NCBI GenBank assembly: GCA_963737265.1
Contig: CAVTRY010000021.1
Span: 292,600 to 356,599, forward strand
Reading direction: 5' to 3'
From: an uncultured delta proteobacterium
GTDB lineage: Bacteria; Myxococcota_A; Polyangia; Fen-1088
DNA length: 64,000 nt
The notes under the pieces were generated by a model. That model worked only from the letters and a program-made list of their open reading frames with translations. It was not told the origin of the DNA and ran no database searches. Below are positions 1,995-64,000 of this stretch, piece after piece (the stretch's first letter is position 1; every line of letters begins with the position of its first letter). The translations under genes and the position numbers were made by a program.

Positions 1995-1996
1995 GA

Positions 1997-2887: not shown

Positions 2888-2966
2888 CGTGGCTCCTTCA
2901 ACCCCATGGCGCGGCATCCTGCCCGGATTCAGGGGCCTGGTCAAAAACGAACGGGACGCCATCCCG

Positions 2967-4836: not shown

Positions 4837-5331
4837 CGGTCACTTGGGTTCTGGTGCGAAATCTGGCTGCGCGATAGGCGCGGATTGGTTTTCGGGCATT
4901 GGGCGGCGCGGCTGAAAAATAGGGCAGAGGGAGCCTACCACGACGCACAGGATGGTTCCGAGGACAGCCTCTTTGAGATATCCGAGCTGGAGCTCGCTGC
5001 GGAGGGGAAGGGACGGGAACGGGCAGCCTCAGAGATTCTTCTCGACCCTTTCAAAGAGCAAAATGTAGCTAGGCACATTACCGAGCCAGCGCCATTCCCA
5101 GAACGTATCGACCGGGCGGTAGTTGGCCCTGAGCTCCAAGCAACGCCCGCTCGGCGGTGCGCCGGAAGTTCCACACGTGGTTGCTGACGTCCAACAAGAA
5201 CTGGCATCCTATTCGGAGCAGGCAGAGTCAACAGAAATTCGGCGTCGTCGGTCGACGAACGCCTTTCCCGGCTGACACGCCGAGCGGCGCCTGCCTATTT
5301 CTCGGCGGCGTGACCGATCCGCGCTAGCCAG

Positions 5332-44900: not shown

Positions 44901-45505
44901 AATCGGTTTCCGATCGAATGCTCAAAGACTTCGATCAGGAAGCCCGAGATGCCGCAAACAAGTCTCCGACCCTTCAGAAGAAACTGGAGCACCTCGACCA
45001 GCATGGGTGGGAGGTTCGACGAGGTCAATCTGGCAAGGGCTCGTACTGTGACAGAGACGGGAGGGTGATCGTAGTCGATCCCAACAACAGCGGTGCTCAA
45101 GCAACCGGTACAATCGCTCATGAAGTGGGCCATGCGATGCATGCGGAGGAACCACCGGTGCCGCCGACTGGTCGCACTAAGAAAGAATACGTTGACGCCA
45201 ACGTTGACCGACATATGAGAGACGAAGGTGATGCCCAGTTCAATGCCGCAAGAGTCAGGGACGAAGTAGGCTCGGCCGGCGGGACAGACACACGCATCCC
45301 CGGACAACACGAGGATGGGTACCAAAAGATCTATGATGACCACAAAGCTGGCAAGATTTCAGAGGACCAGGCGAAAGGGCAGATGGGAGACCTCATGGGA
45401 CAAGAGAAGACCTCCACTACAGGCGAGTCCTATAGGGATTACTATGGAAAACACTATTCAGATTCCTACGACCAGGCGAATGCTGGCAGCGGTGGGGAAA
45501 GCTGA
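41912..45505 (+). CDS. Rhs toxin with C-terminal HExxH metallopeptidase-like domain
   Basis: GDPVDVVTG N-terminal motif; YD repeats; PLRWPGHY...GLHDNRFRTYSPELGRYLQCDP...NPLRAVDLRGL core end; C-terminal AHEVGHA...DEGDAQ. Confidence 0.92.
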   Translation: MTSKACTPVSWSQGLRLVGDPVDVVTGAQTFFETDFRLQGEHIPISWTRHYDNRRNQIDRGAGHGFRLSFDVELRFDLDGITFVNGQGDNVEFPFLSEDGERLVRDGHEIVRVGLHHYCVSPPGDAPCWDFRFERETTARPSSLFYEDDRRPAVRLHYEKGLLSTMQVDASKRVAFEYAGSHVTGAVLLEAGNQTKQRLVRYQYDSQGRLTGVEDAYGGTLRYEYDKDNRLVRSTDRRGYSFLFAYDAEGRCIHTRGEDGVEDYRFEYKPLERLTVVTRGDGAVTSYYYDDQGGLVQVIDPCGGVTAYLKDDEGRVVAEVDPNGNESEILYDDGGQPYAKRDPLGHVRATPADPTPHPLSHRLPENPLQWEQGDWPGEPRDLPSDITLENWMPRWLVAAWGNNPSPLPPKPNLIKNEQGLPVREERADGKTRRWAFDPNGNFRWQTDFDGRTRKYEYGSWNHLLREIDPQGSVTEYAYSISEEVTAITDPGGTRSEYGYDPKDRLIEVRRHGRVRENYKYDAADNLIEKRDSQGRPLLTFAIAPGNLMKQRILASGDVQDFEYTEEGRLAKAKNRAGTATFEYDVGGRRIADERDRKGVHHRFVADRLAQSTVLGKFTTKYISVDATTTIVLDPGGQTQRLRLAGPGLVERAASNDTQELTHYDRDGRCLLKAADGSGLGTAKDGWARKFVYSGEGDLLRRDDNLRGTTAYEHDEAHRLAAVRLPDGSQQRYTYDRAGNLVQAPGLAARIQRGNRLLEVNGDQCSYDDRDHLSRREGPGGRTTYSYDSRDLLIGIEGPGLSYQAQHDGLGRRTKKTVNAQTWHYYWDTDRLAAEVFPDGRLRVYVYPDAFALVPMLFLDYDSVDADPASGKRYHLYTDHLGCPELVLDDAGKTVWRARIDPYGTAHVDIGADFHQPLRWPGHYCDAETGLHDNRFRTYSPELGRYLQCDPSGTEGALNLYAYTDNPLRAVDLRGLAATCPDGVKDCPHRKEGGEDKESVSDRMLKDFDQEARDAANKSPTLQKKLEHLDQHGWEVRRGQSGKGSYCDRDGRVIVVDPNNSGAQATGTIAHEVGHAMHAEEPPVPPTGRTKKEYVDANVDRHMRDEGDAQFNAARVRDEVGSAGGTDTRIPGQHEDGYQKIYDDHKAGKISEDQAKGQMGDLMGQEKTSTTGESYRDYYGKHYSDSYDQANAGSGGES

Positions 45506-46420: not shown

Positions 46421-47403
46421 CTTCAGTGACGGTGGCTCCGAAATTCCGTAGCGGCGGTGGCCCGAAAATCGGAGATGGGGCGTTGGCTGGGCGAGCAGCG
46501 TGCATGGTGGCGTGACTTCCGCGGTGTGAAGCCTACGGGGACGGCTGGCTGACGGGACCACGGCGCCGGCCTGGTCAGGAAATTCGCGGCAGCGGTGGAG
46601 GTGGCGTAAGCAGGGGGCTGCGGCTCCCGAAGGAGGAGGGGCACGGGTCACAACACCCGGGCCCCTCGTGTCGGTACGTTGGGACGCGTCGACGACCGAG
46701 TCGTCGCAGGTTCCGAGGCAGATGTCCAGTTTTTGGGCGCCGCAGGACGGGACGCGCGATTGGACTCGATTCGGATAGCGATAGGTAGCCTGCCCGGCTG
46801 TGGGCAGGTGTTTTTCGTCTGCTCTCGCTGCGACCACGGCAATCGCTACTGCACGGCCACCTGCAGCCGACTGGCCCTGCTCGCATCGTGGCGTAAGGCC
46901 AGCCGCCTTCGGCAATCGACCCGTGGGGGCCGGCGTGCACATGCCAGGCGGCAGCGCGTGTGCCGACAGAAAGTGACTCATAGGTCTCACCAAGAATTTG
47001 CGTTGCCGGTACAGATCCCCTTGTCGCTGGATTCAGGCGGCAAGGAGGAATGCGATGGAAGAGCGAATCCTGGTGGCAATCCACCCGGGGCGGGGATCGA
47101 CACGAGTCCTGGTGACCGGGGATGCGGGCGAGACGATACTGAAGGCCCGGCTGGAGCGAACGCCCTGGCACGCACGTGCATTGCCAACGCTATTAGAAGC
47201 GCTGGCGCTGTGGCAGAAGCAGAAGGTCCACGGTGTAGTTTTTGCGGGATCAGGGGGCAGTCCATACGGGTCGAGTCTGTGTGCCACACTCGACGCCGAG
47301 CACGAGCGGACGCCCCTTTACACGGTCGACGTGGTCGAGGCCCGCCGGCCACCGCGCCAGGCGGACCAGCTTCGGGGTATGGGTGATTACCGAGATCTCC
47401 GCC
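46421..47403 (+). mobile_element. Truncated left part of the IS21-like element (near-identical to 57116-58098), cut by IS66
   Basis: Direct identity to the copy at 57116 (offset 10695); one substitution seen, 46784 G vs 57479 T. Confidence 0.92.
46760..47386 (+). CDS. IS21-associated Zn-finger ORF (copy 1; first Cys mutated to Gly)
   Basis: GSLPGCGQVFFVCSRCDHGNRYC...C; identical to copy 2 apart from C>G. Confidence 0.55.
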   Translation: MDSIRIAIGSLPGCGQVFFVCSRCDHGNRYCTATCSRLALLASWRKASRLRQSTRGGRRAHARRQRVCRQKVTHRSHQEFALPVQIPLSLDSGGKEECDGRANPGGNPPGAGIDTSPGDRGCGRDDTEGPAGANALARTCIANAIRSAGAVAEAEGPRCSFCGIRGQSIRVESVCHTRRRARADAPLHGRRGRGPPATAPGGPASGYG

Positions 47404-48747
47404 GTAAACCCCTTACAGGCAGGGTGATTGCGGAGGTCCCCCGCATGAGGGAGATTGGCGTGGATGGCAACGAGCCGGCGAAAACGCGCAGAGCCTGGAC
47501 CTCCCGACAGGGACGCCCGCCCGTGCGCGAGTCTATTTGGGGCGCTGCTATCGGGCTTGGTTCGCAGCCCAGCTGGCGGGGGTGAGCTCGGACATTCGCG
47601 ACAGGGCGTGGCCGCGCTCAAGCTTGTCGATGGTGTCCTGGAGGTAGCGCCTGGGATCGATGCCGAGGATGAGGCAGTTGTCGACCAGGGTGTAGGCCGC
47701 CGCGAGGCGTTCACCGCCGCGCACGGAGCCGGTGAAGAGGAAATTGCGGCGACCGACGGCGTAGTTGCGGATGCGTCGCTCGGTTCGGCCGTTGTCGATC
47801 TCGAATGCGCCGTCGCTGAAACAGCGGCGGAAGAAGATCCGCTGGTTGATGGCGTAGGTTGTGGCCCGGCGCAAAGGGGACTTGGGCAAGAGGGTGGGAT
47901 GCGTGCTGTCCACCCAGGCGTCCAGCTGATCCAGGATGGGCAGGGAGCGCACGCGGCGGATCTCGCCCCGGGCCTTGGCATCGACACCTCCGGCCTTGCA
48001 CTCAGCCTCGATGAGGTAGAGGTCAGCAAAGAATTTGAGCGGGATGCCGGCACGTCTGTCTTTGGCCAACAATGCGGCGTGGAACTTGGATCGAATGTGC
48101 ATACCGCACCCGAGGCGGCGGTCGTCGGGGACGGCAATCGAAGTTTCCCCGTCGTCGTCTTCGACCTCGGACGAGTACCCGGCGTAGCCGTCACATTGGA
48201 TCCAATTGTCAATGGAGGAAAACCAATCGGTGATTTCCTCGGCATTCCAACTGGAAGTGTACCCGTAGGCAACCGTTTCGCGGCCACCCACAATGCCGTC
48301 GGTACCGACAAAGCACCAAAGATGGCCGCGAAAGACGCCGTTCTTGGCCGTCCGGTCGAGCGTCTTGAGGTGGGAGTCATCGGCGCCGACGGTGTGGGAC
48401 GCGAAGACGTTGCCGGTGACGGAAAGGGCCACCGGGGAAAGGATATCGGTGCTGTAGGCCCAGTACGATGCCATGGTCTTGTCGGGCATGTGCAAGCCCA
48501 TGCGGTCGAATTCTCGTCTTTGGCGGTCGATAGGAAAACCGAGCGCACATTTGTCGGCCAGGAGCTTGGCGAGAAAGGACGAGCCGACCTTTCGAATCAC
48601 GGCGGGAGCCTCCGTGCGCGGGGCAATGCTCACGTCTTTGCGGCAAGGCAGGCAAGTCATTTTCTCGCGCTGCTCAATGTGCAGAACGACCTTGGCCGGT
48701 ACGAACTCAATGCGCTGATGCTCGATGGTTTCGAAGACGGTTTTGGC

Positions 48748-50238
48748 CGCCCATCACGCTTTCGGGTGAGCTTCCGTCGAGGGTCAGTGGCAGCATGAGA
48801 AATACAGGATCTGCATGAGGTTGTCGGGGTTGCGGTAGCCGTGGCCACGCTGGCTGATGCCGCGAACACGTGAATTGTTGCCTTCGAGGGCTGCGTTGGA
48901 AAGACCGTGCTTGGCCCAGGCAATAACGCCCGACCAATGGCGCTTAATCATGTTCCAGAATCGCTTCAACGAGCCAAGTCGTTGCCAGCGTAATAGGCGA
49001 CGCCAGTGGTCGAGTGCTGCAGCCATACCGACCTCAGTGTGATAGCCCCATACGACGTCGAACTGCTCCTTGAGCAGGTACGCTACCTGGAGACGTCGGT
49101 TGAGGCGGAATAGCTCGTCAAGCTCGCGACGGCGACGCCAGTGAAGACGACGACGCTTCTTGAGCAGGAGGAACTTCTTGCCTCGGATGGCCTCGCGATA
49201 CAGGCCACCCTTGCGCCAAAATTCCGCCTTGCGGACCTGGTCGACGGCGTCGGTGAGGTGGTGCTCGATGTGGAATCGGTCGAAGACGAGGTCAGCCTGT
49301 GGGGCATGTTCGCAGATGGCGTTGATGTAGCCTTGGGCCATGTCCAGCGTGACTGCCACCAGCCGATGCGACCGGCGCGGTCCCAGCTTCACGAAAAACT
49401 GCTTGAGTGTTTCCTCCTGCTTGCCCTCGCCGATCCAAACCACGTGTCCGGCCTCGTGGTCCCAGACGATGGTCAGATACTTGTTCTGGCCTCGGCCGTA
49501 GCTGACCTCGTCGACGCCGATGATGCGAAGCTTGCGATGGAAGCGGCGCTCGACCGCATCCTCGACCCAGTGGGTGATGAGGCGCATGACGGTAGTCCAG
49601 TGCAGCCCGAGTTGGCGGCACACGCCGGCAATGGAAGTCGTGCGGGCACGCCGCAGGACCTCCGCCTCGAACATGTGAGTCATGCGCGAGCCGGTGCGCG
49701 CCCACGGGACCTGTTCGACCCGGATCCCACAGCGGCGACAGCGCACGCGCCGCAGAGGCGCGATGACGACCGTGCGGATGCCCCAACCGTCGAGATGACG
49801 CCAGGCCCGGGCGCAATTCTTGATATCCAGCGCGCAGCGCTTGGTCTCTCCACAGCCGGAGCACACAGCCGACTGCCTGGTCGGATACAGGTGTACATGC
49901 CAGGAGCCATCGGTACCGCTGTAGCTGTCGAAACTGACACGCCAGCCGTTTGCAATGGCCAGCTGCAATGCCAAAATACCAGGGACGGACGTTCGTTGGG
50001 AGTTCCTCGTGATTTGCATAAACCCGAAGGATCACCGACGGACGTCCACTTTTCATTTCGCGCACCGTCGCGCGCGGCGACGAGATCCTCGTCGTCGCAT
50101 AGCAGCACCTGAGCCGCCAGCGAGGAGGCCGTCACCCGTAGGGCCGGAGCGAAGCGGAGGAGGCGCGAAGCGCCTTGACGGCCCCCGGAGCGGCGGCTAC
50201 GCCGTTGCCTTCGCAATCACCCGAACGCGCGATGAACC
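48748..50238 (-). mobile_element. ISL3-family insertion sequence (1491 bp)
   Basis: 8-bp target duplication GTTTTGGC at 48740-48747 and 50239-50246; imperfect ~22-bp IR ggttcatcgcgcgttcgggtga / cgcccatcacgctttcgggtga. Confidence 0.9.
48784..50019 (-). CDS. ISL3-family transposase
   Basis: CSGCG, RRVRCRRCG, IGVDEVSY, TLDMAQGY, VFDRFHI, SNAALEGNNS. Confidence 0.93.
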   Translation of the reverse strand: MQITRNSQRTSVPGILALQLAIANGWRVSFDSYSGTDGSWHVHLYPTRQSAVCSGCGETKRCALDIKNCARAWRHLDGWGIRTVVIAPLRRVRCRRCGIRVEQVPWARTGSRMTHMFEAEVLRRARTTSIAGVCRQLGLHWTTVMRLITHWVEDAVERRFHRKLRIIGVDEVSYGRGQNKYLTIVWDHEAGHVVWIGEGKQEETLKQFFVKLGPRRSHRLVAVTLDMAQGYINAICEHAPQADLVFDRFHIEHHLTDAVDQVRKAEFWRKGGLYREAIRGKKFLLLKKRRRLHWRRRRELDELFRLNRRLQVAYLLKEQFDVVWGYHTEVGMAAALDHWRRLLRWQRLGSLKRFWNMIKRHWSGVIAWAKHGLSNAALEGNNSRVRGISQRGHGYRNPDNLMQILYFSCCH

Positions 50239-50861
50239 GTTTTGGCGCCACCGCAGAGTGCGCAGCTCCGCTCCTCCTCGGGCACAGACACCTTGGTGAT
50301 AATCTTCTCCACCTTGTCGTCGACCACAGTCGCGCCGCCGACCTTGCGCTTCCGCCGCTTCTTGCCGGCGCCATTCGGTGCGGCGACCTCGCCGTCGACG
50401 TTCAGCACGTCTGCCGGCGCGGCGGGAACCGGCACAAGCGGGCCATCCGCCGGTATCGGGGCAGCGGCATCACCGCCGAGCGCAAGATAGAGCTGCTTGA
50501 GTTCGTCTGGCGCCAGCTTTTCAGTGTTCCGACCGAAGCGGTAGCGCAAGGCACGCAAAAGCCGCCATGACATGCGCTCATTTTCCTGCTCCAGAGCCAA
50601 GACGATGCCCATCATCTTGTCGATGGCATTGGCAATATTGCCCTGCGCGGCCATAGCGCCAAGCTCGGCCTTGAGCGCCTCCATTCTTTGTTGACGTTCT
50701 ATTTCGATGTCAGCGTCGAGTTCAATCCCGGCGCAGAGCAGGTCCCGTGGAACCGGCAATGCGCCATCCACGATGAAGGTCTTCTCTTTACGTTTGGGCT
50801 GCGATTGCGACAAGGCGACAATTGAAATCGCAAATCGCCGCTCATTATGCAATTGAATTCA

Positions 50862-51251
50862 TCACGTCGTTGCAGATTTCTCCGATATTGTTGATTGTGG
50901 CTCCCACTTGAACCGTTTGCGCCGTTTGACTGTGCCCAAATCGATTCCCTCAAGCATCAGCCCCAACTCCGCAGCATCAATTTCCACATGGCTCTTGTTG
51001 CCTTCGTCATTGCGGACCATGCGAAACGTCCCTGCTTCGAGGCGTTTTCGCATCACCACAAATCCCGTGCGATCCCAGAATAGAATCTGCGCCATGTCAC
51101 CTCGTCGGTTGAGGAAGAAGAACATGTGCCCTGTCATTGGATCCCCGCCCAGGCTGTCACGCACCACAGCCGCCAAGCCGTCGAAACTCTTGCGGGCGTC
51201 CACAGGCTCGACAGCAGCGAAAATCCGAACACTCGGAGGCAGTGTCAACAT
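50862..51251 (-). CDS. tnpB: IS66 accessory protein TnpB
   Basis: PVDARKSFDGL, FFFLNRRGD, LFWDRTGF, KRLEAGTF. Confidence 0.93.
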   Translation of the reverse strand: MLTLPPSVRIFAAVEPVDARKSFDGLAAVVRDSLGGDPMTGHMFFFLNRRGDMAQILFWDRTGFVVMRKRLEAGTFRMVRNDEGNKSHVEIDAAELGLMLEGIDLGTVKRRKRFKWEPQSTISEKSATT

Positions 51252-51631
51252 GGATGCCCACCCTCGACGGCGTTGACCAGGTCGGACACTCGCGTGAAAT
51301 CCGTATCGGGCCTGACGTGCATGCGCAGCCGACGGCCGTTCGCCAAGTCGATCTCGACCATGACAGTGGCGTTGGAGGACGGCGTTCTCGCTGCGTGCAG
51401 GACGCTCACCGGCAGAAACGCGGGCACCGCACTCTTGCTCCGTGACTCCCCGTCGTTCCGCAGAACCCGCTTCCAGAATTTGAGCGTGCTGAGCACGAGG
51501 CCCTTCTTTGCGGCGTACTCCTTGGGGCTCAGGCCGCTGTCACGAAGGCTCCGAACTTCCTTGAGCCACGCTGATCGTGGCCGACGCTCTCGCTTCGCCA
51601 ATGGCGCTGCCAAACTTCTGTTCTTCTCCAT
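51245..51631 (-). CDS. tnpA: IS66 accessory protein TnpA
   Basis: SGLSPKEYA...STLKFWK helix-turn-helix, FLPV, VEIDLANG. Confidence 0.85.
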   Translation of the reverse strand: MEKNRSLAAPLAKRERRPRSAWLKEVRSLRDSGLSPKEYAAKKGLVLSTLKFWKRVLRNDGESRSKSAVPAFLPVSVLHAARTPSSNATVMVEIDLANGRRLRMHVRPDTDFTRVSDLVNAVEGGHPC

Positions 51632-51689
51632 GCGTCCAGCATGCCCGAAATCCAGCCGCGCGCATCGCCCCTGCCTGTAAGGGGTTTAC

Positions 51690-52812
51690 GGCCCGGGGCT
51701 GAGCTACCAAGCCCAGCACGATGGTCTCGGCCGACGAACGAAGAAGACCGTCAACGGCCAAACCTGGCACTACTACTGGGATACCGACCGCCTAGCCGCC
51801 GAAGTGTTTCCCGACGGCCGGTTGCGCGTCTACGTCTATCCCGATGCATTCGCCCTGGTGCCGATGCTGTTTCTGGATTACGACAGTGTCGATGCCGATC
51901 CAGCCAGCGGCAAACGCTACCACCTCTATACCGACCACCTCGGCTGTCCCGGGCTGGTGCTGGACGATGCCAGTCGCAACGTCTGGAAAGCGAGGGTCGA
52001 TCCGTACGGCACGGCTCACGTTGAGGTCGGCCAGGACTTCCACCAGCCCCTGCGCTGGCCCGGGCACTATTTCGACGCCGAGACTGGCCTGCACGACAAC
52101 CGCTTCCGGACCTACAGCCCCGAGCTGGGAAGGTACTTGCAATGCGACCCCAGCGGCACAGAGGGTGGGCTCAACCTCTACGCGTACACCGACAATCCGC
52201 TACGGGCGGTGGACCTGCGAGGATATGAAGAGACTTGCCCGGAGGGTACCAAAGACTGTCCGTTCGAAAAGGAGGGGGGCAAAGACAAAGAGGGAGTCAA
52301 GAAAACGGTTTCCGATGCCGAGCCCGGAAAGACGCTTTCCGATGGCAGCCCGATGCCGCCCGGAACGAAGAAGGTAACCTACTCCGACGGCAACCACCAG
52401 GCGCATTACTACGTGGATGGCCAAGGGCGAACGATCCGCGCCGAAGTCCCCGTGAAGCCCCCCGCCGAATACAAGAAACGTGGCGTCGGACACATCAATC
52501 CTGAGGGGCGTGTCGCGTCGTGATGATCGCGGGCACCTAGGCAGCGAACGCGGTGCCCCCAACGCAAAACTGGTCAACCAGCCGGAAAATGTCATCGCAG
52601 AACACGGTACCGAAAGCAATCGAGGCCCGAAGAAGAAGTGGGAGAATTCCGCCAACGCGGAGGCTGCGAACCATCGGGAGTCAAACTATACTTCCGTCCA
52701 CGAACCTCAATATGATGGCAACAATCCTCGACCAACCTCTGTTTCCCATGATCTGCTGAAAGACGGTGAACCTGTTCCAGGCCACGCCGCCGAAATCCCG
52801 AACCCGGAGTGA
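51690..52812 (+). pseudogene. Orphan Rhs core remnant with DRGH-type (Endonuclease NS_2-like) nuclease toxin; frameshift near 52518
   Basis: DNA near-identical to the first Rhs from 44300 on; NPLRAVDLRGY; YYVDGQGRT, DDRGHL, NRGPKKKWEN, YDGNNPRP. Confidence 0.8.
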
Positions 52813-54533: not shown

Positions 54534-55296
54534 GGAAACTGGCGTCGCGGAAACCGGCGTCGCGGTGGCGACCAACGCTATCGCGGCGATGCTGCCGGCC
54601 TTCCCAGCGGCGCAGTTGGGCTCGCTCTACGTCGGCGCTCCGCACGCGCACGCCCATCCCCCGTCTCTCATTCCGCCGGCGCCGCCGGTGCCCCTGCCCA
54701 GCATGGGTGCCATCACCCTCGGAACCTGCGTGCGGGTTCTGGTGGGCGGCATGCCCGCGGCGCGCGTGGGCAATCTGGGGATGGCGCCCACCTGCGGCGG
54801 TCTGGCGCCGTATTTCACAGTGTTCCTGGGTTCGTCCAAGGTCTTCTTCGGCGGCGCGCGGGCCGCGCGCATGACCGACATGTGCGCCGTGTGCTCGCCC
54901 GGCTCGCCCCGCTCGATGAGCGTGTTGTCGCTGGCCTTGGCGGCCAAGAGCGCGATCGATGATATGGCCGCCGCCGACGAGACCGCGCAAACCGACGCCG
55001 CCATGGGGGCAGCCCAGGCCCTGGGCGCGGCCATGTCCGCCGCCCAGACCGCGGCCGACGCCATCGCCGCCGTGATGACCTCGCTCATGGGCTCGGATCC
55101 GGCCATCCCCCCCAAGCTGCCAGGTTTCATCATGCTGGGCGCGCCCACCGTCCTCGTCGCCGGCGTTCCCGTCCCAGCGACGGACGCGATCGCCAAGTGG
55201 CTGAAGAACAAGCTCAAGGGCCTCGCCTCCAAGGCCAGGAAAGGCGCCGGAAAAGTGCTCGCAAAATTGGGCGGAGGCGGCGGATGTCCCGGATGA
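54534..55296 (+). pseudogene. 5'-truncated second copy of the PAAR gene
   Basis: Near-identical to 41168-41915; lacks the first ~70 codons; begins at a 15-bp tandem duplication. Confidence 0.85.
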
Positions 55297-57454
55297 CTTC
55301 CAGGACGTGCGCCCCGGTTTCGTGGTCCCAGGGCCTGCGCCTGGTGGGCGATCCCGTGGACGTGGTCACCGGCGCGCAGACCTTCTTCGAAACCGACTTT
55401 CGCCTGCAAGGCGAGCACATTCCCATCTCGTGGACCCGCCACTACGACAACCGTCGCAACCAGATCGATTGCGGCGCCGGACACGGTTTCCGCCTCTCCT
55501 TCGACGTCGAGCTCCGCTTCGACCTCGACGGCATCACGTTCGTCAATGGCCAGGGCGACAACGTCGAATTCCCCTTCCTGTCCGAGGACGGCGAGCGGCT
55601 TGTGCGCGACGGCCACGAAATCGTGCGCGTTGGTCTTCACCACTACTGCGTGTCCCCGCCGGGGGACGCGCCCTGCTGGGACTTTCGCTTCGAGCGAGAA
55701 ACCACCGCCCGACCAAGCTCGCTGTTCTACGAAGACGATCGGCGTCCCGCGGTGCGCTTGCATTACGAAAAGGGCCTCCTGTCCACCATGCAGGTCGACG
55801 CCAGCAAACGCGTGGCCTTCGAGTACGCGGGCTCGCACGTCACCGGTGCCGTACTTCTGGAAGCCGGCAACCCGACCAAGCAGCGTCTGGTGCGCTACCA
55901 GTACGACCCGCAGGGTCGCCTGACTGGCGTCGAGGACGCCTATGGCGGCACGCTTCGCTACGAATACGACAAAGACAATCGCTTGGTCCGTTCGACCGAC
56001 CGGCGCGGCTACAGCTTCCTGTTCGCCTACGACGCCGAGGGCCGCTGCATCCACACCCGTGGCGAAGACGGCGTCGAGGAATACCGGTTCGAGTACAAAC
56101 CCCTCGAGCGCCTGACAGTGGTCACCCGCGGCGACGGCGCCGTCACGAGCTACTACTACGACGAGCAGAACGGCCTTGTACAGGTCATCGATCCCTGCGG
56201 TGGCGTGACCGCTTACCTGAAGGACGACGAAGGTCGGGTCGTCGGCGAGGTGGATCCGAACGGCAACAAGAACGAGATCCTCTACGATGAGCGCGGCCAG
56301 CCCTACGCCAAGCGGGATCCGCTGGGACACGTGCGCGCGACGCCCGCCGACCCAACGCCGCATCCCCTCTCGCACCGCCTGCCGGAGAATCCGCTGCAAT
56401 GGGAGCAAGGCGACTGGCCGGGGCCCACACAGGCCATTCCTGACGGGGTACCGCTCGGGAGATGGCTTCCGCGCTGGTTGATCGATACCTGGGGCGAGAA
56501 CCCCATCGTTTTGCAGCCGGCGCCGGTTCTCGTCAAGAACCTCCAGGGGCTGGCCGTCCGCGAAGAGCGCAGGGATAGCAAGGCTCGCCGCTGGGCATAC
56601 GATTTCAACGGCTATTTCCGCTGGTACACCGATTTCGACGGAGAAACCAGCCGCTATGAGTACACTTCCTGGAACCACCTGCAGCGCCGGATAGACCCGC
56701 TCGAAAGCATCACCGAATACGGCTACACCAAGAGCGAGAAGGTGGCGACGATCGTTGACCCGCTCGGCACACGCCACGACTATGGTTACGATCTGAAGGA
56801 TCGCCTGATCGCGGTTCGTCGCCACGGCAATGTTCGAGAGAGTTACAAATACGATGCCGCTGACAACCTGATCGAGAAGGTCGACGGGCAAGGCAAGCCG
56901 CTGCTGACCCTCGCCATCGGTGCAGGCAACCTGATGAAGCAGCGAAAGCTGGCATCAGGCGATGTACAGGACTTCGAATATACGAAGGAGGGCCGGCTCG
57001 TCAAAGTCAAGAACCGCGCCGGCACTACTACCTTCGCTTACAATCCAGTCGGTCGCTGCATTACCGATGAACGAAATGGTCTAGGAGCTCGCCATCGTTT
57101 TGTCGCTGACCAGCTCTTCAGTGACGGTGGCTCCGAAATTCCGTAGCGGCGGTGGCCCGAAAATCGGAGATGGGGCGTTGGCTGGGCGAGCAGCGTGCAT
57201 GGTGGCGTGACTTCCGCGGTGTGAAGCCTACGGGGACGGCTGGCTGACGGGACCACGGCGCCGGCCTGGTCAGGAAATTCGCGGCAGCGGTGGAGGTGGC
57301 GTAAGCAGGGGGCTGCGGCTCCCGAAGGAGGAGGGGCACGGGTCACAACACCCGGGCCCCTCGTGTCGGTACGTTGGGACGCGTCGACGACCGAGTCGTC
57401 GCAGGTTCCGAGGCAGATGTCCAGTTTTTGGGCGCCGCAGGACGGGACGCGCGA

Positions 57455-58081
57455 TTGGACTCGATTCGGATAGCGATATGTAGCCTGCCCGGCTGTGGGC
57501 AGGTGTTTTTCGTCTGCTCTCGCTGCGACCACGGCAATCGCTACTGCACGGCCACCTGCAGCCGACTGGCCCTGCTCGCATCGTGGCGTAAGGCCAGCCG
57601 CCTTCGGCAATCGACCCGTGGGGGCCGGCGTGCACATGCCAGGCGGCAGCGCGTGTGCCGACAGAAAGTGACTCATAGGTCTCACCAAGAATTTGCGTTG
57701 CCGGTACAGATCCCCTTGTCGCTGGATTCAGGCGGCAAGGAGGAATGCGATGGAAGAGCGAATCCTGGTGGCAATCCACCCGGGGCGGGGATCGACACGA
57801 GTCCTGGTGACCGGGGATGCGGGCGAGACGATACTGAAGGCCCGGCTGGAGCGAACGCCCTGGCACGCACGTGCATTGCCAACGCTATTAGAAGCGCTGG
57901 CGCTGTGGCAGAAGCAGAAGGTCCACGGTGTAGTTTTTGCGGGATCAGGGGGCAGTCCATACGGGTCGAGTCTGTGTGCCACACTCGACGCCGAGCACGA
58001 GCGGACGCCCCTTTACACGGTCGACGTGGTCGAGGCCCGCCGGCCACCGCGCCAGGCGGACCAGCTTCGGGGTATGGGTGA
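57455..58081 (+). CDS. IS21-associated Zn-finger/basic protein
   Basis: CSLPGC...CSRCDHGNRYC...C, Arg-rich helix ending KVTH, distal CSFCG; TTG start inferred. Confidence 0.6.
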   Translation: MDSIRIAICSLPGCGQVFFVCSRCDHGNRYCTATCSRLALLASWRKASRLRQSTRGGRRAHARRQRVCRQKVTHRSHQEFALPVQIPLSLDSGGKEECDGRANPGGNPPGAGIDTSPGDRGCGRDDTEGPAGANALARTCIANAIRSAGAVAEAEGPRCSFCGIRGQSIRVESVCHTRRRARADAPLHGRRGRGPPATAPGGPASGYG

Positions 58082-58127
58082 TTACCGAGATCTCCGCCAG
58101 CTGTTGCTTTTCGAAAGGTTGCGGTGA
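57750..58127 (+). CDS. Hypothetical protein of the IS21-like element (125 aa)
   Basis: Strong AAGGAGG RBS; ILKARL...HARALPTLLEALALW; GTGA overlap with the ParB ORF. Confidence 0.7.
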   Translation: MEERILVAIHPGRGSTRVLVTGDAGETILKARLERTPWHARALPTLLEALALWQKQKVHGVVFAGSGGSPYGSSLCATLDAEHERTPLYTVDVVEARRPPRQADQLRGMGDYRDLRQLLLFERLR

Positions 58128-59254
58128 ACGCCCCGGTCGACCTGCCTGCGCCACAAGCGCGTGTGCCGGACGAGGTGGCTGGGGCAGTGTGCTTTCTGCC
58201 CGTGTCCAATCTACGGACAAGCTATGCGCACCTCCGTCCCGGCTGTCTTGCACCCACGGAAATGCTCACGGCAGAGCTGCCGGTACGGGTGGCGCAGACG
58301 GAAGATGGCCATTACGAGGTGCTTGACGGGTTCAAGCGTCTCAGTCGCTGGCGGGCGCAAGGCCACAGTCACGTGCCAGTGATGCTGGAGATATCGGCCT
58401 CGCGCATCGACCACAAGCGCACCATGCTGGCCGCCAATGCCCCACCGCGCTCCTTGACCGCGCTCGACGAGGCACGGGTCGTCGCCTCCTTGGTCGACGA
58501 GGACGAGCTGTCAGCGCGGGCAGTGGCGCTTCTTTGCGGACGCAAGACTGACTGGGTAGAGCGGCGGCTGCTATTGGCCAGACATCTCGGCGCGGAGGCG
58601 AGCGCGGCGCTGGCGCAAGGGCGTATTGGCCCATCGCTCGCCGAAGCGCTGGCTCCGCTCGGGCGACAGGACCAGGCCACGGTGCTTGCCGCCATCACAC
58701 ACCACCATGTACCCACCCGAAGAGCGCTCGCACTGGTCGCCGCCTACCGGGCCGCCGATCCCGCGGATCGCCGCTGCCTGATTGATGATCCGCTCGGGCA
58801 ACTGGCACCGGCTACGACGTCAGCCTCGCTTTCGACGCGAGCGTCGGTCCTGACGGACACGCTGGCCCACTTTCGCAAGACGCTACACGAGCTCGCGAAT
58901 TTCCATCTGCCGAGCGATCTGGCGCCACCGGAGCGGCGACGCCTGGAAGCGCTCTTCCGCGCCGTCCTCGACGACCTTGGACGGACCGCGACCACCCTGA
59001 GTGCCGACGCCAAGCTTTGGCCTCGGCCATCCACCACGAGAAAGGACCCCTATGAACATGGACACGAAAGACCCGCCGGAAGCCCTCCGCTCACCGCCTG
59101 TGAATCCACCCCCGGCGGCGCCACCGCAACTCAAACGGGGCCGGCCGCGGCGCACGCTCACCCTGGAGCAACTCGAGAAAATTGTGGAGTTGCACCCATT
59201 CTACGGCAGTCGGAAGATTGCCAAACGCACGAACTTGACTCGACAGATGGTTGA
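58124..59254 (+). CDS. ParB/Srx N-terminal-domain protein
   Basis: PVRV...HYEVLDGFKRL (ParB box-like), LTALDEARVV, helix-turn-helix LSARAVALLCGRKTDWVERRL. Confidence 0.8.
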   Translation: MNAPVDLPAPQARVPDEVAGAVCFLPVSNLRTSYAHLRPGCLAPTEMLTAELPVRVAQTEDGHYEVLDGFKRLSRWRAQGHSHVPVMLEISASRIDHKRTMLAANAPPRSLTALDEARVVASLVDEDELSARAVALLCGRKTDWVERRLLLARHLGAEASAALAQGRIGPSLAEALAPLGRQDQATVLAAITHHHVPTRRALALVAAYRAADPADRRCLIDDPLGQLAPATTSASLSTRASVLTDTLAHFRKTLHELANFHLPSDLAPPERRRLEALFRAVLDDLGRTATTLSADAKLWPRPSTTRKDPYEHGHERPAGSPPLTACESTPGGATATQTGPAAAHAHPGATRENCGVAPILRQSEDCQTHELDSTDG

Positions 59255-60752
59255 GCGGGTCTTGCGAGAGCGAGGGCTGCTGGCGACGCTGCACACGCCC
59301 CTGCTGGCTCACAGCAAGCTTCAGCCATTCTACGAGCCCATTGCCGATCGAGTACAGAAAGACCTGACGGCCACCCGCATCCTGCGCGAGATCACGGGAA
59401 TGGGGTACTCGGGCGGCCGGACGATCTTGGCCGAACACCTCCGCAAGCTCCGCGCCGAGATGACGGTGCTACCACGGAAGCCAACCACCAAGCGCCGTTT
59501 CGAGACTGGTCCCGCGGTCGAGATGCAGATCGACTGGAGCCCCTACGAAATCCTGATAGCGGGCCGACCGGTGAAGGTACATGTCCTCGGCTGCCTCCTG
59601 TGCTACTCGCGCAAACTCTTCCTCCACTTCTACCGTGACGAGCGCCAGTCGACTCTACTTGAGGGGCTTGCCAGCGCCTTCGAGTACTTTGACGGCGTCG
59701 CACATCGGCTGGTCCTGGACAACATGTCGACTGCGGTCCTCGGCCGCATAGGCTCTGGGCGCAAGCCCCTGTGGCATGACCGCTTCGCTGACTTCGTCCG
59801 CCACTACGGCATGGATGCCTTCGCCTGCAAAGTCCGCGACCCAGATCGCAAGGGCAAGAAGGAGAAGTCCTTCCGCCTCGTCTGGGACGATTTCGTCAAG
59901 GGCACCGAATTCGCCTCCTGGGACGACCTGCACGCGCGCTGTCGCCGCTGGCTCGACGAAACTCCAACTCTCGGCAACCTCCGCGTCCACGGAACCACCC
60001 GGCGCGTCCCCAACGAGGTCTGGGACAGCGAGGAACACGCCCTGCTCATCCGCTTACCCCGAGACCGCTTCCCGGTCCACGAGAGCGCCCCACGGATTGT
60101 CGATTGCGACTCCACTCTCTCGATCCACGGGACCAGGTACACGGTGCCCGCCGCACTGGCGGGCCGTTCAGTCGCCGTACGGCTCTTTGCCGAGCACTTC
60201 GACGTCCTCGACCCGCACGGCTGCGTCGCCTTTTCCCGCATCTACGTCCCCGACGAGCAGAAGGGCCGTCTCGTCATCGACGAGACCCACTACGCCAATC
60301 TCCCACGACGCGGATTTGGTCGGGGCCTGGTCGACGGTGGCGACCGCCTCGACGAGGCCTTCCTACGTCGCTTTCCCGACCTCGCTCCTTTGGTCGATGG
60401 CCTCAAGTGCCGCATGAAGACCCTCGCGCCCATCCACATCCGCGCCCTGCTGCGTTTGTGCGACCGCTTCGGCGAAGACGCTTTTCGTGTCGCCGCCACC
60501 AGGGTCCAGCACTTTCGCCGTTTCGATGCCACCGCCGTCGAACGCATCCTCGACCAGCAGGCCGAGCCGCTGCCCGACATCGACGCTGTCTCGCCACTTT
60601 TCGGATGCGGTCCCACCATCCTTGGCGAGATTGAGGCGCCCTCTCTCGACGCATTTGCCGACCTCGACGCCCAGCCTGGCCACCAAGAAGCGAGCCACGG
60701 GAACGCCACCTTGTCAGTCGCGCTCCCTGAGGAGGACAATCATGGCTCGTAG
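59052..60752 (+). CDS. istA: IS21-family transposase IstA
   Basis: GYSGGRTIL, RRFETGPAVEMQIDW, LCYSR, LVLDNM, RKGKKE, RVHGTT. Confidence 0.92.
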   Translation: MNMDTKDPPEALRSPPVNPPPAAPPQLKRGRPRRTLTLEQLEKIVELHPFYGSRKIAKRTNLTRQMVERVLRERGLLATLHTPLLAHSKLQPFYEPIADRVQKDLTATRILREITGMGYSGGRTILAEHLRKLRAEMTVLPRKPTTKRRFETGPAVEMQIDWSPYEILIAGRPVKVHVLGCLLCYSRKLFLHFYRDERQSTLLEGLASAFEYFDGVAHRLVLDNMSTAVLGRIGSGRKPLWHDRFADFVRHYGMDAFACKVRDPDRKGKKEKSFRLVWDDFVKGTEFASWDDLHARCRRWLDETPTLGNLRVHGTTRRVPNEVWDSEEHALLIRLPRDRFPVHESAPRIVDCDSTLSIHGTRYTVPAALAGRSVAVRLFAEHFDVLDPHGCVAFSRIYVPDEQKGRLVIDETHYANLPRRGFGRGLVDGGDRLDEAFLRRFPDLAPLVDGLKCRMKTLAPIHIRALLRLCDRFGEDAFRVAATRVQHFRRFDATAVERILDQQAEPLPDIDAVSPLFGCGPTILGEIEAPSLDAFADLDAQPGHQEASHGNATLSVALPEEDNHGS

Positions 60753-61527
60753 TCGCCACCGCCCACCGGCTCCAGATCCCGTCGATGAGCTGGTCCAACT
60801 CGCCATCGACCTGGACCTGACCACACTGTCCGCAGCCTTGCCCAGCATGCTTCGCCGTGCTGAACAGGAGGGCATGGCCTTCACGGCCTTTGCCGGTGCC
60901 TTGCTTCGTGCCGAGACCGATGCCCGCCGCGAGCGCCGTCTTGAGCGCAGCTTGCGTCGATTGCGCCTCGGCACGGTCGAGGGACTCGACGGATTCGACT
61001 TTCAGATTCGGCCACAACTCGAGCCCCGCGTGGTCAACGAGCTGGTCAACTGCCGATTCGTCGAGGAGCGCCGCAACGTCCTCTGTCTCGGCAAACCCGG
61101 CACCGGCAAGACCCGCATCGCCAAGGCCCTGGCCCACGCAGCCTGCATCGCTGGTCACTCCACCCTCTGCGTCCTCTGCGCCGACATGCTTGAAGACCTC
61201 CACGCCTCGCAGGCCGACGGCACCTTCCGCCGGGCCCTGCGCCGCTACGTCAAGCCGGCGCTGCTGCTCATCGACGAATTCGCCTACCAGGCCTTTGACA
61301 CCCACACCACCAACTACCTGTTCCGCGTCGTCGGTGCCAGACACGGCCAGGGCTCGATCGTGCTCACCGCCAATACCGGCTTTCAGCAATGGAAGAACGC
61401 CTTTCCCTCCGAAGCCTCCGCCGTCTCCACCGTCGACCGCCTGGTCGACCGCGCTACCATCCTTCGCTTCACAGGCAAAAGCTGCCGCGCCCCAAAGGAG
61501 ATTGTCGGCGCTCCCCTCGACGATTAG
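60742..61527 (+). CDS. istB: IS21-family AAA+ ATPase IstB
   Basis: GGAGGA RBS; LDGFDF, GKPGTGKT, LLLIDEFAY, VDRLVDRA. Confidence 0.94.
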   Translation: MARSRHRPPAPDPVDELVQLAIDLDLTTLSAALPSMLRRAEQEGMAFTAFAGALLRAETDARRERRLERSLRRLRLGTVEGLDGFDFQIRPQLEPRVVNELVNCRFVEERRNVLCLGKPGTGKTRIAKALAHAACIAGHSTLCVLCADMLEDLHASQADGTFRRALRRYVKPALLLIDEFAYQAFDTHTTNYLFRVVGARHGQGSIVLTANTGFQQWKNAFPSEASAVSTVDRLVDRATILRFTGKSCRAPKEIVGAPLDD

Positions 61528-63025
61528 TCGTCAGCCCAATCTGTCCCAAGAGCACGGGAAGTCGCCCAGGCGCGACTTCCCGTGCCCTTTCCATTTCGGC
61601 CTCTTAAACCGCGATGGCCCGCCCACCATCGCTGCTCCGCCGCCCGCCCGAATTTCGGCACCAAGCCGCCATCCCCATTTTCGGGACCACCGGCGATGAA
61701 GCAGCTCGCCCAGACCACCGTCTTGGGTCGATTCGCCACGCAATACATTCGCACCAACGCAACCACGACCATCATCGTGGATCCTGCCGGCCAAACTCAG
61801 CGTCTGCATCTCGCGGGACCTGGACTCATCGAACGCTCGTGTTCAAACGACGTCGAAGAATTGAGCCATTATGACCGGACCGGTCGCTGCCTTTTGAAGG
61901 CTGCCGAAGGTGGAAGGCTGATAAAGGGCTGGGCACGCAGGTTTGAGTACTCGGGCGAAGGAGACCTGGTTCGGCGCGACGACACATTGCGTGGCACAGT
62001 CAGCTTCGACCACGACGATTCCCATCGCCTTTCGAAGGTACGCTTCGAGACCGGCGTCGCCCAAGAATACGCGTATGACCGTGCGGGCAATTTGCTCCGG
62101 GCACCCGGCCTCGTCGCTAAAACCCAAGCCGGTAATCGCCTGCTCGATGCCAACGAGGATCGTTTCACTTATAACCATCGCGACCACGTGGCGAGTCGCG
62201 AGGGCCGGACCGGAAAGGTCACGTACACCTATGATTCGCGCGATCTGCTCATCGGCATCGAAGGACCAAACCTGTCCTACCAAGCGGTTCACGACGGCAT
62301 TGGCCGGCGTACGCAAAAGACCGTCAACGGGCAGACCTGGCACTACTATTGGGATGACGACCGTCTAATTGCGGAGATCTTCCCAGACGGCCGCTTGCGC
62401 GTGTACGTCTATCCTGACGCCTTCGCTCTGGTGCCGATTCTCTTCCTAGACTACGAGAATGTCGACGCCGACCCGACCACCGGAAGACGTTACCACGTCT
62501 ACACCGACCACCTTGGCTGCCCCGAGCTAGTTCTCGATGACGCCGGCCACACAGCGTGGCGTGCGCGCATCGATCCGTACGGCACGGCCCACGTCGACGT
62601 CGGCCACGACTTCCATCAACCCCTGCGCTGGCCCGGCCATTACTTCGACGCCGAGACTGGTCTTCACGAGAACCGATTCCGCACCTACAGCCCCGAGCTC
62701 GGCAGATATCTGCAAAGCGATCCCGAGGGGACCGCGGGCGGGCTCAATCTCTACGCGTACAACGACAACCCCTTGCGAAGCGTCGACCTTCGCGGGCTCA
62801 AATGAAGTGGACCCCTTTGGTAGGACCAGAAATGGCCCGAGCTAAGAGAGAGTCCGCGTGGGTTTGTTTGTAGATCCGGGTGAGCCTCGCCGGCAAGGAA
62901 ATTGTTGAGAGCGGAGGCATGCTGATGGCTGCTGTCCACGGATGCAATGCGCGCACGGCCCCACAGAAGCAGGTGAACGCGTTGCAGTTGTGGGCAGCGT
63001 GCCATCAGCATGATGCAGCGGCGAT

Positions 63026-63862
63026 TTAGGCGGCCTCTTTCATCGCCGACTTCTTTAGTTCGAATTCGTAAAACGCTACGGGTGTCTGAAATCCAAGGGT
63101 TTGGTGAGGCCGCCTGTGGTTGTACTTGTCCAGGTAGATCGCGATGCCACTGCGGGCGTCGGCCACGTCTCGGTAGTCGTTCAAGTAGACCTCCTCGCAT
63201 TTGACAGACCGCCATAGACGCTCGACGAAGATGTTGTCCATGAATCGGCCGCGACCGTCCATGCTGACCTTTACGCCCTTGTCCAGCAAAACCGATGTGA
63301 AGTTGTCGTCGGTAAACTGCGACCCCTGGTCGGTGTTGAAGATCTCCTGCAAGCCGAAGTTCGCAAAAGCTTCTTCCACGACCTCAATGCAAAAACGGCT
63401 GTCCATCGTGTTTGAAATGCGCCAGGACAGAACCCGGCGCGTGTACCAATCCATCACGGCGACCAGGTAGCAATGCCCCTGTCTCGTCGGGATGTACGTG
63501 ATATCCGAGGCCCACACCTGATTGGGCCGAATGATCGCGAGATGGCGCAGCAAGTACGGGAATTTCGTATGTTCCGGCGCGGGCACGGTCGTCCGTGGTT
63601 TGGGCGCCAGCGCTTCGATGCCCATGATTCGCATCAGTCTCTGCACCCGTTTGCGATTCACCGTCTGCCCCTGTGCCTTTAGCAACCGTGACAGCTTCCG
63701 GCTGCCGAATGCTGGCAATTCGAGATGCAGCTTGTCCAGCTCCTTGCAGATGGCCAGATCTTCCTCTGCGATCGGCATCGGCTCCCAGTAGATGCCCGAT
63801 CTCGCAAGATTCAGCAGCTCGCACTGCCGACGGACAGATAGGTCGTTGTGGGGCTCGATCAT
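63026..63862 (-). CDS. IS3-family transposase OrfB (DDE)
   Basis: RPNQVWASDITY, IFNTDQGSQF, DNIFVERLWRSVK, YNHRRPHQTLG. Confidence 0.93.
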   Translation of the reverse strand: MIEPHNDLSVRRQCELLNLARSGIYWEPMPIAEEDLAICKELDKLHLELPAFGSRKLSRLLKAQGQTVNRKRVQRLMRIMGIEALAPKPRTTVPAPEHTKFPYLLRHLAIIRPNQVWASDITYIPTRQGHCYLVAVMDWYTRRVLSWRISNTMDSRFCIEVVEEAFANFGLQEIFNTDQGSQFTDDNFTSVLLDKGVKVSMDGRGRFMDNIFVERLWRSVKCEEVYLNDYRDVADARSGIAIYLDKYNHRRPHQTLGFQTPVAFYEFELKKSAMKEAA

Positions 63863-63876
63863 GGCGCGCTTCTCCG

Positions 63877-64000
63877 TCAGCGAATGCGCGCGAGCCCGCG
63901 TGCTAAAAAATCATTCTCCAGCGTCAGCTGCCCCACCTTGCGCAGCAATTCCGATTCGCGTTCGGCGTTCGCCGATTCCTCTGCATTTGCATGGCCTGGT
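63877..64000 (-). CDS. IS3 OrfA C-terminal part (partial)
   Basis: ...ELLRKVGQLTLENDFLARGLARIR*. Confidence 0.8.
   Translation of the reverse strand, partial: PGHANAEESANAERESELLRKVGQLTLENDFLARGLARIR
63904..63910 (-). other. Programmed -1 frameshift slippery heptamer T TTT TTA joining orfA to orfB
   Basis: The -1 frame reads FFSTRARAHSLTEKRAMIE, open into orfB; standard IS3 expression mechanism. Confidence 0.7.

Follow-up and report, generated by a model that had tools for sequence, protein, structure and literature searches.

A complete and recently active IS21-family element of 4586 bp, carrying three genes besides the usual istA and istB, was found at positions 57116-61701 (+) of a 64,000-nucleotide stretch (the window) of contig CAVTRY010000021.1 from an uncultured delta proteobacterium. 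One of the additional genes codes for a protein of predicted ParB/Noc fold that has been inherited together with the transposase across many bacterial phyla and is probably part of the transposition machinery, although a function for it is only inferred. The original prediction of a five-gene IS21-like transposon within an Rhs gene was confirmed in its observations, but its interpretation, that all three additional genes are integral factors of a Tn7-like IS21 subgroup, was only partly supported by our results. Literature searches found no description of it.

A mobile element within an Rhs-family gene

The element interrupts an Rhs-family gene, of which the 5' part lies at 55197-57115 (+) and the 3' part at 61707-62805 (+), and it is flanked by the target-site duplication CAGCT at 57111-57115 and 61702-61706. 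Removal of the element plus one CAGCT restored an open frame of 1005 codons, which aligned end to end at 81% identity with the paralogous Rhs gene at 41501-45505. The termini are imperfect inverted repeats, CTTCAGTGACGGTGG... and CTTCATCGCCGGTGG..., and each end carries two copies of GGTGG(N1-2)CCGAAA(A/T)T 24-26 bp apart. The left-end sites, L1 (57126-57143) and L2 (57151-57167), together span 57126-57167 (+), and the right-end sites, R2 (61647-61664) and R1 (61673-61691), span 61647-61691 (-). By comparison with L1/L2 of IS21 (PMC10122671), the left-end sites are probably IstA binding sites.

A second copy, of which a nearly identical left part 10.7 kb away was noted in the original prediction, is present at 46421-47403 (+), 10,695 bp upstream, but only as the left 983 bp (99.9% identical, 1 mismatch), since it is cut off where an ISL3-family element with perfect 24-bp inverted repeats begins. 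The genome holds more identical copies, including a third one on another contig (C11), split by a 1437-bp IS3-type insertion, and a 5'-truncated one at the end of a further contig (C8). The C11 copy has only a 4-bp duplication (AAGT), and the duplication is therefore 4-5 bp rather than strictly 5 bp. In a peat metagenome run, contigs 97-99% alike break exactly at 57116 and 61701 with other flanks. In addition, a related ParB-type element of 4713 bp has 5 copies in a Terriglobia MAG, each with its own 4-6 bp duplication and near-identical termini, CTTCGGTGACGGTGG.

The element shares with canonical members of the IS21 family (IS21, IS5376, IS100, IS1326, ISPst3) an IstA DDE transposase followed by an overlapping IstB AAA+ helper, inverted ends built of two repeated sites each, short target duplications and no evident target sequence. 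Target duplications in the family measure 4-8 bp; a length of 5 bp is stated in PMC10122671. However, it has five genes in 4.6 kb instead of two in about 2-2.5 kb, its ends read 5'-CTTC...GAAG-3', with GAAG-3' on both strands as delimited by the duplication and the contig breaks, rather than ending in CA as in IS5376 (PMC10122671), and its IstA is at most about 32% identical to the named IS21-like transposases listed from 72,556 plasmids.

The five genes and their predicted folds

All five genes are co-oriented. istA (59052-60752, +; an alternative GTG start lies at 59001) codes for a transposase with an HTH and a DDE/rve core, scoring 206.8 bits to NF033546 (cut-off 160) and 33.4 bits to Pfam rve (cut-off 32.6), with a further match to Mu-transpos_C_2. 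Its stop overlaps by 11 nt the start of istB (60742-61527, +), whose product scores 187.8 bits to Pfam IstB_IS21 (cut-off 24.1) and 197.7 bits to NF038214, just under the cut-off of 200. A 14-pair hairpin followed by a T-rich tail, terminator-like, lies just after istB at 61552-61585 (+).

ORF1 (57374-58081, +) codes for a Zn-ribbon protein with the pattern CxxC..CxxC..YCxxxC followed by a basic tail. Its conserved part is about 57374-57700 and GC3 supports this frame to about 57560, although the frame stays open to 58081 across ORF2. No Pfam or NCBIfam family matched ORF1, but an iterated HMM found the family in 50 loci of the pool.

ORF2 (57750-58127, +) codes for a protein of only 125 aa with a predicted RuvC/YqgF-type RNase H-like fold (three strands, helix, strand, helix, strand, helix). 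Relatives were found in 257 representative clusters at E<=1e-3, the AF2 model has pLDDT 84, and VIA-align over 104-124 residues gave Z 10.8 to Cas12i RuvC, 9.6 to poxvirus resolvase, 9.5 and 9.2 to RuvX/YqgF and 8.3, with 23% identity, to the IS110-family recombinase ISCro4; Foldseek also supported this fold, and an ESM Atlas lead pointed to DEDD_Tnp_IS110 at 0.89. At the sequence level, however, ORF2 matched neither Pfam nor an IS110 N-terminal domain of the same genome. The first catalytic Asp, at the end of strand 1, is not conserved: the position reads H, D, A, Q, V or M among relatives and is not among the columns conserved at 90% or more (R17, L29, A31, L33, A42, L46, E48, A51, W53, F112, D114) in a 70-row alignment.

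The stop of ORF2 overlaps by 4 nt the start of the ParB-like gene (58124-59254, +), and the tail of the latter overlaps istA. The conserved core, residues ~20-296 (to ~59012), consists of a ParB N-terminal domain, an HTH domain and a C-terminal helical hairpin. The protein matched NCBIfam Noc at 4e-7, a profile search against PDB returned Noc at 5e-17 and ParB at 1e-14, and Foldseek with the AF2 model (pLDDT 79) gave E values from 2e-10 to 1e-6 to Noc, CTP/CDP-bound ParB and KorB. Even though the ParB N-terminal domain and HTH fold are shared with these CTP-dependent DNA clamps, the inferred nucleotide pocket is modified. Box II, GERRxRA, aligns to DGFKR, of which only G and the last R are kept, and box III, ENLQR, aligns to (A)N(A)P(x)R, in which N is invariant, R is nearly so and E is lost; DGFKR, N105 and others are invariant in 21 of 21 sequences. 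The residue aligned with the E of GERR is Phe, at the position that is Ala in the M. xanthus E93A structure 7o0n, and the E of ENLQR is Ala. Nucleotide binding is therefore itself uncertain. In contrast to these clamps, the C-terminal part is a helical hairpin and the gene lies in an inferred transposase operon. There is no ParA partner, and no repeated or palindromic motif in the element, parS-like or other, exceeded the shuffled controls apart from the end repeats, although a single site would not be seen this way. Among the 72,556 plasmids, the protein matched no transposon-borne gene, the single hit being an archaeal partition ParB.

Linkage of the accessory genes to IstA

The possibility that the accessory genes are variable cargo, which would have refuted the original prediction, was examined in related loci. 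The ParB-like gene is not variable cargo: it lies directly upstream of istA in 52 of 61 related loci from many phyla. In the IstA phylogeny, ParB-linked IstAs form one clade of 54 rows (SH-like support 96; IQ-TREE support 92 on the first set), of which 50 have ParB, 2 are at contig edges, 1 is Zn-only and 1 has none, and ParB is present in none of the rows outside that clade. ParB distances track those of IstA and IstB (Mantel r 0.90 and 0.89, against 0.96 for IstA-IstB, on 24 of 27 loci after removing near-copies). Two of our sets of loci were chosen by the very genes that were then counted, and only a sample chosen by IstA alone is free of that bias; in the latter, 13 of 29 loci carry ParB, and all 13 fall in the ParB clade. 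Most related loci are short MAG contigs whose taxonomic labels are unsure, and one locus (L012) has the ParB-like gene with no IstA or IstB within 7 kb.

The proposed five-gene order, in contrast, is not the fixed unit. The Zn-ribbon gene is widespread, being present in 21 of 49 ParB-type loci and in a sister IstA clade, but ORF2 accompanies ParB in only 2 of the 49, while ORF1 and ORF2 without ParB are the usual layout of that sister clade. The slot upstream of ParB is filled by any of five or six unrelated small-gene families, and 48 of 49 ParB-type loci with at least 900 bp of upstream sequence carry at least one small gene from a limited set of families.

Possible roles of the ParB-like protein

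We are fairly confident that this is an autonomous member of a distinct and widespread IS21 clade. Our analysis shows that the element moves as a 4.6-kb unit with 4-5 bp target duplications, that it encodes a bona fide IstA DDE transposase and an IstB AAA+ helper, that its ends carry two repeated sites each, and that a ParB/Noc-fold protein encoded just upstream of istA is inherited and diverges together with both proteins across phyla. The remainder is inferred. Transposition would work as in IS21, with IstA synapsing the L1/L2 and R1/R2 sites and IstB capturing and bending the target and activating IstA, and the start/stop overlaps and the terminator-like hairpin suggest that the five genes are read as one operon from the left end. 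The ParB-like dimer would bind DNA of the element or next to it through its HTH domain, and its modified pocket, in which both acidic residues are missing, would probably make it a slow or non-hydrolysing switch, if it binds a nucleotide at all. Its most likely job, though only tentatively assigned, is to regulate transposition in cis, either by repressing the operon in the manner of KorB or by keeping IstB off DNA near the element, a form of target immunity. The truncated copy only 10.7 kb away does not fit strong target immunity. The Zn-ribbon protein and the catalytically degenerate RuvC-like protein may be interchangeable DNA- or protein-binding adaptors in the upstream slot.

A more far-reaching and rather unlikely possibility is that a ParB-fold nucleotide switch has been recruited as a third core component of a DDE/AAA+ transposition machine, acting, when loaded on or near the element, on the DNA-bound IstB ATPase much as ParB acts on ParA. 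This would give IS21-type elements cis-immunity or target choice, tuned in different lineages by the swappable slot (Zn-ribbon, dead RuvC-like protein, wHTH protein and others).

IS21 is a structurally well-studied model of how an AAA+ ATPase controls a DDE transposase and is described as a two-gene system (PMC10122671). A large, cross-phylum clade carrying a ParB-fold protein would add an unstudied layer of control to this machine, and a new job for the ParB/CTP-switch fold outside partition, nucleoid occlusion and plasmid gene silencing. The element is small, complete and evidently active. These 4-5 kb units also break metagenome assemblies, and their ParB genes can be mistaken for plasmid or chromosome partition genes.

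The comparison with Tn7 made in the original prediction is an analogy only. Multi-component transposons such as Mu, Tn7 and Tn5053/Tn402 likewise combine a transposase, an AAA+ target-capture ATPase and further DNA-binding accessory proteins, but this is a likeness in logic, with no shared ancestry beyond IstA/IstB with MuA/MuB-type proteins. Pfam and NCBIfam scans of all five proteins showed only IstA, IstB and weak ParB matches; there is no TnsA, TniQ/TnsD or resolvase, and the accessory proteins have other folds (ParB, Zn-ribbon, RuvC-like).

Alternatively, the ParB-like gene and the small upstream genes could be passengers that benefit the element or its host in a way unrelated to transposition, for example anti-defence, addiction or silencing of neighbouring genes, and be stably linked only because they sit inside the ends. 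The swappable slot, the movement of ORF2 between clades, the solitary gene of L012 and the fact that canonical IS21 needs only IstA and IstB (PMC10122671) agree with this. However, we consider it unlikely, since ParB keeps the same position across phyla, diverges at the same rate and in step with IstA and IstB, and marks one IstA clade, whereas true cargo is usually patchy within a clade and lies outside the transposase operon.

Still less likely, the ParB-like protein could be a target selector in the way of TniQ/TnsD, binding particular DNA or spreading from a loading site and recruiting IstB so that insertions are directed there. By analogy, a DDE transposase with an AAA+ regulator often has a third DNA-binding targeting protein, and two of the copies lie in one Rhs region, from which local hopping or target preference had been suggested. 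Our results do not support either suggestion, although the numbers are small: the duplicated sequences, CAGCT and AAGT here and ATGG, AAGA, (C)AATTA, TCTCG and GCCGT in the Terriglobia element, share no motif, and the contexts differ, being an Rhs gene in one case and IS debris on C11 and C8 in the others. Finally, a chance composite of a plain IS21 with unrelated neighbouring genes, or an assembly artefact, for which nothing speaks beyond the unusual size, is refuted by the recurrence of the same 4586 bp with the same ends at other places in the genome and in other samples, by the target duplication and restored host frame that bracket all five genes, and by the transposition of related multi-gene elements as units elsewhere.

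The element and its copies

The stretch 57116-61701 is a cleanly bounded element of 4586 bp. The sequence CAGCT lies directly on both sides of it, at 57111-57115 and 61702-61706, and its tips are imperfect inverted repeats, CTTCAGTGACGGTGG... and CTTCATCGCCGGTGG... Each end holds two copies of GGTGG(N1-2)CCGAAA(A/T)T, 24-26 bp apart, which is the L1/L2-R1/R2 layout described for IS21 (PMC10122671). Removal of the element and one CAGCT gives an open frame of 1005 codons that aligns over its whole length, at 81% identity, with the Rhs paralog at 41501-45505. The G+C content is 63.5% for the window and 65.2% for the element.

A second copy, limited to the left 983 bp and with 1 mismatch, lies at 46421-47403. 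It stops where a 4292-bp element (47401-51692) with perfect 24-bp inverted repeats (GCCGTAAACCCCTTACAGGCAGGG) begins. This element carries an ISL3-family transposase (48784-50019, minus strand) and three or four further ORFs with no family, and since it abuts position 983 of the truncated copy and is followed by Rhs-like sequence, a deletion or recombination removed the rest of that copy. The genome (6.55 Mb, 25 contigs) also has a full copy on contig C11, split in its ParB-like gene by a 1437-bp IS3-type element, and a 5'-truncated copy at a contig end on C8, with all copies listed as 100% identical. The C11 copy is flanked by AAGT only, and the duplication is therefore of 4-5 bp. An abutted right-end/left-end junction, as expected from a tandem or circle form, was looked for in the assembly and none was found. 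In a peat metagenome run, contigs 97-99% alike end exactly at 57116 and 61701 and continue into other sequence, and a soil run holds the C11 insertion. The element is therefore real, delimited to the base and recently active, and the observation made in the original prediction held, although the 5-bp duplication that it described is not constant between copies.

Predicted products of the five genes

Five co-oriented ORFs fill the element. IstA (59052 or 59001 to 60752) scores 206.8 bits on NF033546, against a cut-off of 160, and IstB (60742-61527) scores 187.8 bits on Pfam IstB_IS21 and 197.7 on NF038214, whose cut-off is 200. The ORF2 stop overlaps the start of the ParB-like gene by 4 nt, the IstA stop overlaps the IstB start by 11 nt, and a 14-pair hairpin with a T-rich tail follows istB. 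The left non-coding stretch is 258 bp long, and no sigma-70-type promoter was found at the left end. Contigs from RNA libraries, 95-97% alike, cover parts of ORF1, parB, istA and istB, but these are assembled contigs for which DNA carry-over cannot be excluded and they do not count as proof of transcription.

The ParB-like protein (58124-59254) gave only weak family hits, with Noc at 4e-7, parB_part at 7e-5 and Pfam HTH_ParB below threshold. However, a profile of its relatives matches solved Noc at 5e-17 and ParB at about 1e-14, and its AF2 model (pLDDT 79, high for residues 21-300) matches Noc, CTP/CDP-bound ParB and KorB at Foldseek E values of 2e-10 to 1e-6. The conserved core ends near residue 296, and the rest of the ORF is an unconserved tail read across the start of istA. 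In the profile alignments the invariant DGFKR of the family lies on GERR of Noc, Spo0J and ParB, with the Phe at the position that is Ala in the M. xanthus E93A structure 7o0n, and ANxPxR lies on ENLQR. The glutamates of these two motifs serve CTP hydrolysis. A 15-nt perfect inverted match (CATCTCGGCGCGGAG / CTCCGCGCCGAGATG) lies inside the ParB-like and istA coding regions, at 58583-58597 and 59448-59462, 850 nt apart, and may be due to chance.

ORF2 (57750-58127, 125 aa) is a real gene, since 257 representative clusters match it at E<=1e-3, most of them 120-126 aa long. It has no Pfam family, but its model (pLDDT 84) has an RNase H-like fold, supported by Foldseek, and its best VIA-align matches are RuvC-type domains: Cas12i at Z 10.8, poxvirus resolvase at 9.6, RuvX/YqgF at 9.5 and 9.2, and the IS110-family ISCro4 at 8.3 with 23% identity. 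An ESM Atlas lead points the same way (DEDD_Tnp_IS110, 0.89), but a profile comparison of the ORF2 family with an IS110 N-terminal domain of the same genome found no match. The acidic residue expected at the end of strand 1 is not conserved, and the protein is therefore probably not a nuclease.

ORF1, from 57374, is a Zn-ribbon protein with a basic tail and the consensus CxxCGxxFxxCxxCdRGqrYCSxxC...ARR...RYq. It has no known family. A word-based search with ORF1 returned no homologue, whereas an iterated HMM later found the family in 50 loci of the pool of retrieved loci. The ORF1 frame (57374-58081) stays open through most of ORF2 in most related loci (among L120-L139, loci with members of the ORF2 family), and its stop always lies 28-130 nt before the ORF2 stop. 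We asked whether selection keeps this frame open, but its stop rate (0.009 per codon) equals that in istA and istB (0.009-0.012), and a true overlapping gene is neither shown nor excluded.

Relatives, co-inheritance and the upstream slot

The ParB-like protein has only 33 relatives in the word-indexed set of 5.8 billion proteins, all on contigs of at most 8.7 kb. A pattern scan of 185,579 species genomes gave 61 loci, all from MAGs labelled as Actinomycetota, Chloroflexota, Acidobacteriota, Myxococcota, Planctomycetota, Bacillota, Bacteroidota, Spirochaetota and others, although the labels of short contigs are unsure. In 52 of the 61 loci, istA follows on the same strand. Of the other 9, four end at or near a contig end (L018, L030, L036, L069), four hold ParB fragments (L050, L051, L053, L068), and one, L012 on a 1.45-Mb MAG contig, has a small ORF of family 'b' (a ~140-aa family) and a full ParB-like gene (6502-8056) with no IstA or IstB within 7 kb, and is either a remnant or a domesticated pair. 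In two MAG contigs (L032 and L033, about 6552-10036) the istA of a ParB-type element is interrupted by an insertion of about 3.5 kb. No such element was found among 72,556 plasmids, and the named IS21-like transposases listed from those plasmids are 23-33% identical to this IstA. A Terriglobia MAG holds five copies of a 4713-bp ParB-type relative (L022:5815-10527 and the sister loci L023, L026, L045 and L049), 96-99.9% alike, each with its own 4-6 bp duplication, and their termini (CTTCGGTGACGGTGG...) are nearly those of the window element although IstA is only about 50% identical. Full-text literature searches, including PMC7371123, PMC12486865 and PMC3281130 but without access to ISfinder or to supplements, gave no description of an IS21 element with a ParB-like, Zn-ribbon or RuvC-like gene.

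In a tree of 68 IstA rows, all 46 ParB-linked ones lie on one side of a branch (SH-aLRT 92), apart from IS21, IS1326/ISPst3 and other outgroups. Since those loci had been chosen by ParB, we also searched 400 genomes of the window's phylum with IstA alone. In this search, 76 of 401 genomes had a match at E<=1e-20, with 37% as the best non-self identity listed, and of the 29 loci returned, 13 carry ParB upstream, including the eight best. In the joint FastTree tree of 86 rows, from which 11 near-copies were left out, all 13 fall in the ParB clade. This clade has 54 rows, 50 with ParB, 2 without readable context, 1 with the Zn-ribbon only and 1 with neither, and an SH-like support of 96, while five of the six rows with at least 1 kb of upstream sequence and no accessory gene form a separate clade. 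Pairwise distances of ParB track those of IstA (r = 0.90) and IstB (0.89), close to IstA against IstB (0.96), with Mantel p<=0.001 on 24 of 27 loci after near-copies were dropped, and mean divergence is similar (0.56, 0.54 and 0.47).

ORF2, however, is not part of the constant set. Among 49 ParB-type loci with at least 900 bp upstream, the genes before ParB are family 'b' in 13 loci, ORF1 alone in 13, a ~220-aa Cys-rich family 'd' with a weak DUF6431 hit in 8, a wHTH-like family 'c' in 5, ORF1 with 'c' in 5, ORF1 with ORF2 in 2 (the window and L017), a family 'e', with or without ORF1, in 2, and none in 1. The ORF2 family was found in 25 of 401 genomes of the phylum, and in 14 of the 20 loci then retrieved ORF1 and ORF2 lie directly before istA-istB with no ParB, including two places in the window's own genome. 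The IstAs of these loci form a sister clade (support 98). The same genome also has a second, different ParB-type IS21 element (Zn-ribbon, ParB, IstA) on C10 (~1656-5516, L070), as well as IS21 variants with the Zn-ribbon and ORF2 directly before istA and no ParB on C1 (~17.9-21 kb, L132) and C12 (~82.5-83.7 kb, L138). In all, 40 matches to the IS21 transposase model were found in this genome, including a 510-aa type with at least 20 copies. The original interpretation, that the three extra genes are integral transposition factors, was thus partly supported, as co-inheritance with the transposase holds for the ParB-like gene but the five-gene order is not a fixed unit.

Possible roles of the ParB-like protein and surroundings of the element

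Our results demonstrate that the unit moves, that it has the IS21 core and that a gene with a predicted ParB fold is inherited with that core. What remains inference is that transposition proceeds as in IS21, that the genes are expressed as an operon, and that a DNA-bound dimer of the ParB-like protein, with a modified and probably hydrolysis-poor nucleotide pocket, controls the element in cis, either by repression or by immunity through IstB. This regulatory reading is the one we tentatively favour, though it is less likely than not. A search for an array of ParB sites in the element, by k-mer families with mismatches against shuffles and by repeats, found nothing above chance except the end repeats, and a complex prediction of the ParB-like protein with IstB gave no evidence either way.

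A passenger function of the ParB-like gene is unlikely, and target selection more doubtful still, as the insertion sites seen share no motif or context. The local hopping or target preference that had been suggested by two copies in one Rhs island finds no support in these sites. An origin as a chance composite or assembly artefact is rejected by the other copies in the genome, the restored host frame and the metagenome contigs.

Rhs-family paralogs or fragments, 69-96% alike over 300-nt stretches, lie within 21 kb of each other at 41501-45505, 51558-51989 and 55197-62805, interleaved with at least four different insertion sequences. Just after the 3' part of the interrupted Rhs gene (62803-64000, running off the window end) sits a 1437-bp IS3-type element (rve + HTH_21 transposase) that is 99.6% identical to the one that splits the ParB-like gene of the C11 copy.
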